Source: Terriglobales bacterium
GTDB taxonomy: Bacteria; Acidobacteriota; Terriglobia; Terriglobales; Acidobacteriaceae
Assembly: GCA_036271375.1 (NCBI GenBank)
Contig: DATBAT010000258.1
Coordinates: forward strand, 14,813-78,812
Direction: 5' to 3'
DNA length: 64,000 bases
The notes beneath the pieces are model-generated. The model was not told where the DNA came from, searched no databases, and saw nothing but the letters and a program-made list of their open reading frames with translations. Shown in pieces: positions 19,517 to 21,360 of the stretch; the stretch's first letter is position 1, and the number at the start of each line of letters is the position of its first letter. Position numbers and translations under genes: made by a program.

Positions 19517-20926
19517 ATGAGCCATCCATTCGATAGTCTGCCTTTGCTGAGTTCTCAGGAGGTGCTCCTGTGGAATTGGTACGCCCGCGCCGGCATCGGC
19601 GGGTCGGACTGGAAATCATGGGTCGCGGAGATTTTCGGCCGGTTGGTGGAGCGTCCCGGCGGTCCGCAACTATCGCTGGTTCAGAGTCACCTCGTCGACG
19701 CCAAATTCCAGGAGCAGACGCTGGCATTCGGCGCTAAGTGGGAGTTGTTCCTGGGGCGCGACGCGGAAAACGATATTCCCCTTGCCAACAAGGCGATTTC
19801 CAGCAGACACGCGCGAGTTTTTCTCAGCGAGGGCCGCATTTATCTCGAGGATCTAGGCGGCGGACTCGGTACCTATCTCTGGGAAAAGAAGATCCTGACA
19901 AAAGAGCGGCAGCGGCTAAGAAACGGAGATCAGTTCACCATTTTCCCTTACCGGTTTCGGGTGATGGTGAGCGAATCCTGGACTCCGGAGCCTGAGGTGT
20001 CGATCGGGGAATTCCGTTCCCTGCCCTCGACCCGCGCCGACTTCCTGCAGATGTCGCCCCCACTTTGGCGGACCTTTGTGGTGAACGCCCAACCGGATGG
20101 GCAGCGCGCTTTGCTGGAGGTGAGTCCCGCGCTGCTGAATGGCCTTCAGCAGCGTGTTTTTGGCCCATTGGGGGTTGGTGCGGTCAAAGAATCGGTCCCC
20201 GCAGACGACACTCTGCTGGGTTTTGTTCTTCTGGCGCTTCTTGAGCGCCTGAACCAACGGCTAAAGTTTCCCCTGCAATTCTCGTTCATGAAAAGCAATC
20301 GCAACAAAGGCGATGCCTGCCGGGGAATATCTCTCAGCTTTGCCGTCGGCGTTCCCGGCCTGTCGGGACACTGCCGGGTTTTCCTGCCGTTTGATTTTTT
20401 CTCCTCGCAAATGCTGACAATGCCCGCCGATTCCGGATTTCAAGGCCCAGCCGGTCTGGCGTGGAGCTTTCCGGTATCGGCCGGATTTGTAGATCTTTCG
20501 CGGGAAGAAATCTCGCAAATAGGCCTGGGGGACATCCTGGTTGCCGAACGCGGCACGGGCCTCCTACTTCCCAACGATTTCGGCAAGGGCTGGACCGGTT
20601 CACCGGAAGGAAGCAACTTCACCAGCCTCAAGGTCGATAAATATTTTGAGAGGACTACATCCGTGGAAGGTTTCGAGCAAGCGGCTGGCGATATGGCAAA
20701 ACCCGCTCTGGAAAAATTGCCTCTTCGCCTGCATGTGATTGTCGCAGAGAAGGAAATGACGTTCGCCGATATTCAATCCCTGGCCCCGGGGGCGATTGTC
20801 GAACTGGGCGCCAGCAAGATTTCTCCGGTCAAGTTGATGGTGAACGGCAAAGTCCTTGGCGAGGGCGAACTGGTGGACGTAGAGGGCAACCTCGCGGTCA
20901 AGATACTGCGCTGGAGAACCGCCTGA
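19517..20926 (+). CDS. sctQ: SctQ (C-terminal SpoA/FliN domain) with an N-terminal FHA domain
   Basis: FHA: 'WELFLGRDAENDIPLANKAISSRHARVFLSEGRIYLEDLGGGLGTYLWEKKI...GDQFTIFPYRFRV' (about nt 19712-19966). SpoA: 'LPLRLHVIVAEKEMTFADIQSLAPGAIVELGASKISPVKLMVNGKVLGEGELVDVEGNLAVKILRW'. Confidence 0.85.
   Translation: MSHPFDSLPLLSSQEVLLWNWYARAGIGGSDWKSWVAEIFGRLVERPGGPQLSLVQSHLVDAKFQEQTLAFGAKWELFLGRDAENDIPLANKAISSRHARVFLSEGRIYLEDLGGGLGTYLWEKKILTKERQRLRNGDQFTIFPYRFRVMVSESWTPEPEVSIGEFRSLPSTRADFLQMSPPLWRTFVVNAQPDGQRALLEVSPALLNGLQQRVFGPLGVGAVKESVPADDTLLGFVLLALLERLNQRLKFPLQFSFMKSNRNKGDACRGISLSFAVGVPGLSGHCRVFLPFDFFSSQMLTMPADSGFQGPAGLAWSFPVSAGFVDLSREEISQIGLGDILVAERGTGLLLPNDFGKGWTGSPEGSNFTSLKVDKYFERTTSVEGFEQAAGDMAKPALEKLPLRLHVIVAEKEMTFADIQSLAPGAIVELGASKISPVKLMVNGKVLGEGELVDVEGNLAVKILRWRTA
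20612..20640 (+). promoter_or_regulatory. Candidate internal sigma-28-type promoter inside sctQ: AGCAAC-N17-CGATAA
   Basis: AGCAAC at 20612-20617 and CGATAA at 20635-20640, upstream of the in-frame GTG 20663 (preceded by GAGAGGA) and ATG 20693 that precede the SpoA domain. Confidence 0.4.
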
Positions 20927-21360
20927 TGGCTGTGTTTGTTCTGCAAGCCGCCAATGACACCGCCGCCCAGTTGACCTCCGTGAGTTCGCAGGTCGGCAGC
21001 TATCTGGAAGTCCTATTGGCGCTGGCTGGAGTGGTGGTCCTCGCCTACGTGACGTTGCGTTACGGATTGCCCTGGTTGTCAGGCGTACGTCCAAACAATT
21101 CCGGGCCAATTCAAATCGTCGCGCGCTACCCATTGGAAGCGCGCAAGACGCTCTATCTGGTAAAGACTGGCTCCCAGGTATTCCTCATCGGCACGTCAGA
21201 GAACCAGATGGAATACCTCACAACAATTGCTCCCGAGAACGCTGCGGAAATGCTGGAGAGTTCACCAACCGAAGAGGTACCGCGGAAGGATTTCCGGCAA
21301 GTCCTTGGCTGGATGCAAAAGGGTGGGGTATCCAACTCGCGCCGCCAGCCCGGAGCTTAA
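20926..21360 (+). CDS. fliO: FliO homologue
   Basis: One TM (YLEVLLALAGVVVLAYVTL), then 'IQIVARYPLEARKTLYLVKTGSQVFLIGTSENQMEYLTTI...PTEEVPRKDFRQVLGWMQKGG'. This parallels E. coli FliO 'LKISASASLGARERVVVVDVEDARLVLGVTAGQINLLHKL...PTEEIPQTDFQSVMKNLLKRSG' (recalled from memory). It lies directly upstream of sctR, like fliO-fliP. Confidence 0.7.
   Translation: MAVFVLQAANDTAAQLTSVSSQVGSYLEVLLALAGVVVLAYVTLRYGLPWLSGVRPNNSGPIQIVARYPLEARKTLYLVKTGSQVFLIGTSENQMEYLTTIAPENAAEMLESSPTEEVPRKDFRQVLGWMQKGGVSNSRRQPGA

Follow-up and report, generated by a model that had tools for sequence, protein, structure and literature searches.

The DNA analysed here (the window) is a stretch of 64,000 nucleotides from contig DATBAT010000258.1 of a Terriglobales bacterium of the phylum Acidobacteriota (assembly GCA_036271375.1). 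On its plus strand, from 13952 to 31628, lies a gene cluster for a type III secretion system of the non-flagellar kind (NF-T3SS), and within this cluster, between the genes for SctQ and SctR, a gene of the FliO family is found:

20926-21360, + strand: fliO-family gene, ATG start, product of 144 amino acids (aa), PF04347 match

PF04347 (FliO) is the single Pfam family on this open reading frame (ORF) and scores 42.1 bits, the gathering score being 22 (E=9.2e-11). The assignment is no artefact of hydrophobicity, since the aligned residues 55-128 (profile positions 15-87 of 91) form the soluble domain and exclude the transmembrane (TM) helix. In the product about 25 N-terminal residues are followed by one TM helix (about residues 26-46) and a beta-rich domain predicted to be cytoplasmic. 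Hydropathy analysis gives one hydrophobic segment (Kyte-Doolittle 19-residue maximum 2.21, residues 26-44), and an AF2 model built with 15 homologues consists of an N-terminal helix (2-52), four beta-strands (63-101) and two short helices. This architecture agrees with a published description of FliO as a TM helix with a cytoplasmic beta-sheet core (PMC12403147). The positive charges which follow the TM helix suggest that the N-terminus lies outside and the C-terminus inside. An earlier, sequence-only reading of this DNA had described a 144-aa product with one TM helix and a soluble region, and the ORF is exactly as it was given there.

For the comparison with a flagellar protein, FliO of E. 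coli K-12 was taken from NC_000913.3. The overall identity is 22%. In the BLASTP alignment SPTEEVPRKDFRQVL of the window protein pairs with APTEEIPQTDFQSVM of E. coli FliO (31% over 42 aa, E=3e-6), and MAFFT pairs 'LEARKTLYLV...FLIGTS' with 'LGARERVVVV...LVLGVT'. The motifs LxAR...V...G..(F/L)(L/V)(I/L)G.T and PTEE(V/I)P..DF, which the earlier reading had pointed out as shared with E. coli FliO, are real and common to both proteins. With the flagellar FliO of E. coli and Salmonella (PF04347, TIGR03500) the gene product also shares the arrangement of one N-terminal TM helix and a beta-rich domain, and the gene the position directly upstream of a fliP homologue. A further difference is the setting, which is non-flagellar: the window gene follows a 469-aa SctQ fused to an FHA domain, and not FliN.

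The dN/dS value of fliO against a 95%-identical homologue is 0.027 (dS 0.88), in the same range as the values for sctN, sctQ, sctR and sctS (0.014-0.046). The gene is therefore real and under strong purifying selection. A spurious ORF at 20926-21360 was considered as well and is ruled out by the dN/dS of about 0.03 and by the conservation. Among 115 FliO homologues, 113 have a precomputed PF04347 hit, and those which carry an organism name belong to the Terriglobales. ORF 20926-21360 is a genuine FliO-family gene.

The gene is tightly packed between its neighbours. One nucleotide belongs both to the sctQ stop codon TGA (20924-20926) and to the fliO start codon ATG (20926-20928), in the sequence TGATG. 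On the other side fliO ends at 21360 and the first base of sctR is 21365, with 4 nt between the genes; in other lineages fliO and sctR overlap by 4 nt. The proposal that the gene occupies the fliO slot immediately upstream of the FliP homologue, with a 1-nt overlap with the sctQ stop, can thus be read directly from the coordinates. With a GC content of 0.562 the cluster matches the window as a whole (0.563), so there is no sign of a recent transfer.

The genes around fliO are in the order sigma factor, SctI/F, SctJ, a 95-aa ORF, SctL, SctN, SctO, SctP-like, FHA-SctQ, FliO, SctR-S-T-U, TPR genes and SctV; distal to SctV there are further small genes and then a 173-aa FHA protein. The assigned features are:

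13952-14716, + strand: FliA/WhiG-like sigma factor, first gene of the cluster; TIGR02479 E=5.5e-32, 111 bits, below the 189.6 cut-off
14718-15263, + strand: SctI/SctF-family rod or needle-like protein, 181 aa; PF17001 E=0.0018
15291-16118, + strand: sctJ, short lipoprotein-type inner ring protein, 275 aa, not FliF; PF01514
16395-17027, + strand: sctL; FliH/SctL match
17029-18366, + strand: sctN ATPase, 445 aa; TIGR02546 (SctN) 624.3, above the cut-off of 604.75
18363-18860, + strand: sctO; YscO-like
18857-19486, + strand: sctP-like; HpaP/Flg_hook matches
19517-20926, + strand: sctQ with N-terminal FHA domain, 469 aa; FHA (PF00498) at 79-142, FliMN_C (PF01052) at 398-466
21365-22222, + strand: sctR, FliP family, 285 aa; PF00813 222 bits, TIGR01102 (yscR) 212.5, above the cut-off of 208.6
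22219-22485, + strand: sctS, 88 aa; PF01313, FliQ equivalog 95.8 (above 88.9), SctS equivalog 70.4 (below 76.5)
22496-23320, + strand: sctT, 274 aa; PF01311
23330-24388, + strand: sctU, 352 aa; TIGR01404 (SctU) 369.1, above the cut-off of 358
24401-26476, + strand: two TPR chaperone-like genes (24805-25194 and 25961-26476; Pfam TPR) and two ORFs of unknown type, kept in related loci
26586-28724, + strand: sctV, 712 aa; PF00771
29625-31628, + strand: orf90, orf115, TPR134, orf120 and a 173-aa FHA/YscD-cytoplasmic-like protein, kept in related loci

All eight core genes (sctJ, N, Q, R, S, T, U and V) lie within 15291-28724. The cluster is that of a non-flagellar system because SctN, SctU and SctR exceed the cut-offs of the respective NF-T3SS equivalogs, because SctV and SctN match injectisome proteins best and because no flagellum-specific gene is present. 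The best matches of SctN in the PDB are injectisome ATPases, with 57% identity to YscN and 45% to FliI, and SctV scores 601 bits against the LcrD/YscV type and 426 against FlhA (identity 43% to LcrD, 36% to FlhA). SctJ reaches 153 bits with TIGR02544 (YscJ) and 42 bits with FliF, the product of 19517-20926 matches TIGR02551 (SctQ) with E=7.8e-22, and homologues of the 14718-15263 product match PF09392 (T3SS_needle_F). Flagellum-specific families (rod, hook, switch) are missing from the Pfam and NCBIfam matches of the cluster ORFs. Likewise, tblastn with FliE, FliF, FliG, FliK, FliL and FliM of E. coli gave zero matches in 22 acidobacterial genome-contig loci and in the metagenomic loci L001-L008.

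Nevertheless, the cluster could be read as a flagellar export system in reduced or aberrant form, and FliO would then simply stand in its usual setting. The FliH, FliJ and Flg_hook models of Pfam do match SctL, SctO and SctP, SctS passes the FliQ equivalog, a FliA-like sigma gene heads the cluster, and public annotations label the proteins as flagellar. However, the missing FliE, F, G, K, L and M homologues, the short YscJ-like ring protein, the YscV-like SctV, the NF scores of SctN, SctU and SctR, and the presence of a needle/rod family protein together with TPR chaperones make this reading very improbable.

The distribution of the gene was studied in a genome scan with one genome per species, which gave 26 loci. 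In all 22 acidobacterial loci the order is sigma-SctI/F-SctJ-SctL-SctN-SctO-(SctP)-FHA-SctQ-FliO-SctR-S-T-U...SctV; they include Terriglobia/Terriglobales, Acidobacteriaceae, Ca. Sulfotelmatobacter, Bryobacteraceae and Ca. Sulfopaludibacter. The other four loci (Planctomycetota, Sericytochromatia) have a flagellar-type gene order, which in two of them is outright FliN-FliO-FliP-FliQ-FliR. Among the carriers of the acidobacterial cluster is the genome GCA_037025565.1. Gene maps of eight metagenomic or genomic loci show the synteny of the window, and the fliO slot persists in metagenomic loci whose FliO identity is as low as 36-38%. A FliO profile search over 1.84 billion representatives (E<=1e-10) yielded 340 FliO-like clusters, of which a distant member with 38% identity (L044) has the same architecture as the window cluster, and other members are the FliOs of L045, L046 and L047 treated below; a further profile search with distant FliO representatives found 17 metagenomic proteins. 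Searching with FHA-SctQ retrieved acidobacterial relatives only, and fliO is present in both loci obtained in this way, although in one of them the gene is absent from the public gene call. The FHA fusion itself is the rule among 86 SctQ homologues: the FHA domain matches in all and FliMN_C in all but one, and the full-length proteins are fusions, the two exceptions being shorter (339 and 292 aa). Window FliO has no tblastn match in 72,556 plasmids.

Across 20 acidobacterial loci the pairwise divergence of FliO runs parallel to the divergence of SctR, S, T, U and Q. In a Mantel test of FliO against SctR r is 0.84 (0 of 2000 permutations), and the strongest correlations are those with SctT and SctQ (r about 0.93). 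Mean p-distances put the evolutionary rate of FliO about level with that of SctQ (0.55) and at twice that of SctR (0.28). The correlation indicates joint inheritance of FliO and the gate genes from the time when the clade arose. In Acidobacteriota (Terriglobia and Bryobacterales-like lineages), where this NF-T3SS cluster is widespread, fliO is one of its fixed components and is inherited vertically.

Some of the loci deviate from the common arrangement. On a 596-kb contig (L049, 4658-7877) the upstream part of the cluster is lost: of sctN only the final 71 codons are left, sctO carries a frameshift and the neighbours are housekeeping genes, while the fliO gene is intact (53% identical) and was not called by the public gene prediction. 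L047 (2696-9678, GCA_046766215.1) has an NF-like order SctL-SctN-SctO-SctP-like-SctQ-FliO-FliP-FliQ, in which SctQ (543 aa) has no FHA domain, FliO is 182 aa long and SctN is 59% identical to that of the window. Isolated fliO-fliP pairs with a 4-nt overlap occur on metagenomic or metagenome-assembled contigs (L045, 3269-4692; L046, 8001-9301), and no fliQ, fliR or other T3SS gene was found near these two pairs. In the JGI and NCBI annotations, cluster proteins bear the names 'flagellar biogenesis protein FliO' and 'flagellar motor switch protein FliN'.

Comparison with the classical injectisomes reveals both agreement and difference. Ysc, Mxi-Spa/SPI-1, Rhc and Hrp1 share with the window the core genes and the order sctN-O-P-Q-R-S-T-U, and for SctV and SctN of the window the greatest similarity is to the Ysc type. 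As the sequence-only reading had stated, however, these systems lack fliO: in Ysc (pCD1), Mxi-Spa (S. sonnei), Rhc (S. fredii) and Hrp1 (P. stewartii) sctQ abuts or overlaps sctR with no gene between, while the flagellar loci of E. coli and Ralstonia read fliN-fliO-fliP. The classical loci further differ in that SctD, SctK, a gatekeeper and a secretin are encoded there. In the window none of the scanned ORFs, which are all those of at least 150 aa except six (683-2452 and five within 57790-63949), showed a secretin domain.

The components of the export gate itself show a mixed picture. The best PDB matches of SctR are FliP with 161 bits and SpaP with 139 bits. SctT reaches neither equivalog cut-off, and its FliR score exceeds its SctT score; SctU is also above the FlhB cut-off. 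SctR of the window and of close relatives carries a FliP-type signal peptide (MKRFLYLAILLFPHVAHA, followed after cleavage by QGG), cleaved at ...AHA/Q compared with ...AFA/Q in E. coli; YscR, Spa24, RhcR and HrcR have no such peptide. In a second acidobacterial sublineage (L005, L007) SctR is without signal peptide and FliO is kept. All acidobacterial SctRs have a Pro/Ala/Thr-rich insertion in the periplasmic loop (about 45-70 aa, about 45 aa in the window). A neighbour-joining tree of SctR, SctS and SctT (561 columns, Kimura distance, 200 bootstraps), in which the root could not be placed and from which the Myxo and Chlamydia families were left out, supports the acidobacterial clade with 100% and the four classical NF families with 98%, and the two groups are not joined to the exclusion of the flagellar sequences. 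The mean distances are 1.38 between acidobacterial and flagellar, 1.54 between acidobacterial and classical NF, and 1.69 between flagellar and classical NF sequences. SctR, SctS and SctT thus appear about equidistant from flagellar and injectisome homologues, and closer to the flagellar ones than the classical injectisome proteins are, and the placement in the tree is suggestive only.

The sigma factor, whose best NCBIfam match is the sigma-28 family, keeps its position in related loci and would be a further flagellar-type trait of this non-flagellar cluster. The earlier reading had concluded from FliO that the export gate is close to the flagellar ancestor. This seems plausible for SctR, SctS and SctT, in view of their distances, the FliQ-like SctS, the FliP-like signal peptide and the FliA-like sigma factor. 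Against it stand SctV and SctN, which are closest to injectisome proteins, and the NF-T3SS cut-offs that SctR, SctU and SctN pass.

FliO was described as a flagellum-specific chaperone, which stabilises FliP and enables formation of the FliP-FliR core, and injectisomes were stated to be without it (PMC5542435, Fabiani et al. 2017). A survey of 2012 reported NF-T3SS from Proteobacteria, Chlamydiae and Verrucomicrobia only, listed Acidobacteria with flagella only, and placed secretin-less systems of Myxococcales at the base of the NF-T3SS tree (PMC3459982, Abby and Rocha). More recently, FliO was found in NF-T3SS operons of Myxococcota and of six orders of Pseudomonadota (PMC12403147, PNAS 2025; preprint PMC12248157). 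It is frequent in the Myxococcota systems termed vT3SS, both M. xanthus systems included; examples are WP_020477618.1 and WP_216608840.1 from M. xanthus and WP_024891899.1 from Luteimonas. Sphingomonadales and Caulobacterales also have systems with FliO. The same study already relaxed the criterion that FliO belongs to the flagellar operon. The novelty implied by the sequence-only reading is thereby not supported: the objection which it named itself, a routine occurrence of FliO-like genes in known NF-T3SS families, applies in part. The main text of that study does not name Acidobacteriota for NF-T3SS FliO, and Table S3 of the preprint lists acidobacterial FliOs without context, in some genomes two, as for Silvibacterium bohemicum. 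In the literature searched we found no specific description of an acidobacterial NF-T3SS. FliO in NF-T3SS is therefore known in kind since 2025, and new here are the phylum Acidobacteriota and the well-conserved cluster.

The window gene has in common with the Myxococcota and Pseudomonadota vT3SS genes (PMC12403147) that a PF04347 gene lies inside an NF-T3SS operon, and with the Myxococcus systems that a secretin gene is not found in the locus (here among the scanned ORFs of the 64-kb window). It differs in the phylum and in its company of a needle/rod protein, SctP, FHA-SctQ and a FliA-like sigma factor. The needle-less 'Myxo' NF-T3SS or T3SS* of Myxococcus xanthus (PMC3459982, PMC10849154) likewise combines an export apparatus, the ATPase, SctJ and an inner-rod-like protein with the lack of a locus-encoded secretin. 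A soil host and nearby Ser/Thr kinase and FHA genes are shared as well. T3SS* acts in prey lysis. The window holds no Tad/Kil locus; neither a Tad-like locus nor a secretin is present in its operon at 45-58 kb. This operon (45380-57777, minus strand) is of a polysaccharide or O-antigen type, with GT1, GT2 and GT4 enzymes, a Wzy-like protein, an acyltransferase, a sugar transferase and a flippase-like protein, and is unrelated to the T3SS.

Other genes in the neighbourhood are the following. A CsgG-family outer-membrane lipoprotein with a FlgT_C-like domain is encoded 2.3 kb upstream of the cluster (10660-11634, minus strand) and is not kept beside the cluster in related loci. A 285-aa ORF without family match (28725-29582, minus strand) separates sctV from the distal genes and is found with 45-57% identity in most related loci. 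The run orf90-orf115-TPR (134 aa)-orf120 (29625-31103) resembles the YscE-YscF-YscG layout of a small co-chaperone, a needle subunit and a TPR chaperone, and none of its small ORFs matches a known family. The second FHA protein (31107-31628) closes the cluster. Three Ser/Thr protein kinases flank it (31613-33760 on the minus strand, 34025-36526 and 40753-43668), and in related loci a giant kinase is encoded upstream. Taken together, FHA-SctQ, the second FHA protein and the flanking kinases suggest that the sorting platform may be under phospho-threonine control, by analogy with TagH/PpkA of type VI secretion systems.

Based on homology, adjacency and co-inheritance we consider it likely that the gene product is a bona fide FliO, which in a conserved acidobacterial NF-T3SS would serve SctR transiently as a chaperone in the membrane. 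The mechanism proposed here is modelled on flagellar FliO (PMC5542435). FliO would insert into the inner membrane by its single TM helix, with the N-terminus outside and the beta-rich domain in the cytoplasm, would transiently bind newly inserted SctR and shield it from degradation, and would promote formation of the SctR-SctT core. SctS, SctU and SctV would then assemble on this core, and FliO would leave the finished machine. The tight coupling of sctQ, fliO and sctR would ensure their co-expression. Retention from the flagellar ancestor is a more probable origin of the gene than re-acquisition.

Several points speak against this interpretation. The NCBIfam FliO equivalog TIGR03500 gives 50.1 bits (E=2.2e-13), narrowly below its cut-off of 55.25. 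The AF2 model has a mean pLDDT of only 63, which is low to moderate confidence, and it stands without comparison because a profile search found no solved FliO structure in the PDB. Most related loci were found via FliO itself, which is an ascertainment bias, and two only were retrieved independently. The correlation of distances reflects shared history and not physical interaction. Finally, classical injectisomes assemble SctR without FliO, so that a need for it here is not self-evident.

Two other explanations also accept the gene as FliO. According to one of them the ancestor of the acidobacterial NF-T3SS had no fliO, which was later captured from a flagellar operon by recombination, possibly along with sctR, sctS and sctT; the gate would then be a mosaic and not ancestral. 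The contrast between the intermediate SctR/S/T and the clearly injectisome-like SctN and SctV fits such an event, as do the FliP-type signal peptide on SctR in some lineages and the facts that many Acidobacteriota are flagellated and that some of the genomes encode two FliOs (Table S3, PMC12248157). However, FliO occupies the same slot in every sampled acidobacterial sublineage and its divergence tracks that of SctU and SctQ as well as SctR/S/T, so any capture must be older than the clade as a whole; the GC content shows no break either. The FliO of Myxococcota NF-T3SS (PMC12403147), the earliest-branching NF family (PMC3459982), fits retention. We therefore regard a capture as rather unlikely.

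Still less likely, in our estimate, is a FliO which has kept its fold and lost the chaperoning of SctR, and which for example tethers or regulates the FHA-SctQ platform at the membrane under the neighbouring Ser/Thr kinases. Its start codon overlaps sctQ, SctQ is, with SctT, among the proteins whose divergence it follows most closely, the cluster is rich in FHA domains and flanked by kinases, and a 'functional repurposing' of non-flagellar FliOs was itself proposed in PMC12403147. Yet the adjacency of fliO and fliP survives in the isolated pairs and in L047, where the FHA fusion is missing, which points to FliP/SctR as the conserved partner.

A further possibility, which we put forward tentatively and hold to be doubtful, is that the cluster represents an undescribed deep-branching NF-T3SS family which keeps the ancestral flagellar traits FliO, SctR signal peptide, FliQ-like SctS and FliA-like sigma factor, in a phylum for which reference surveys had recorded flagella only. 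If this is true, a form that stands between the export gate of the flagellum and the injectisome would still be living today, and the loss of FliO would mark the later radiation of the classical injectisomes.

The sequences suggest that acidobacterial clusters of this kind bear flagellar annotations in public databases, and surveys may count them as flagella. Surveys which infer flagella from FliO, FliP, FliQ and FliR may therefore over-count flagellated Acidobacteriota. For a long time FliO was the textbook case of an export component restricted to the flagellum. Its presence in non-flagellar systems bears on the evolution of the injectisome from the flagellum and on the question why the classical SctR dispenses with a chaperone. 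As the phenomenon in general has been in print since 2025, the present gain is an incremental one; it adds the abundant soil phylum Acidobacteriota, and with it many natural FliO-SctR variants for co-evolution or structure-prediction work.

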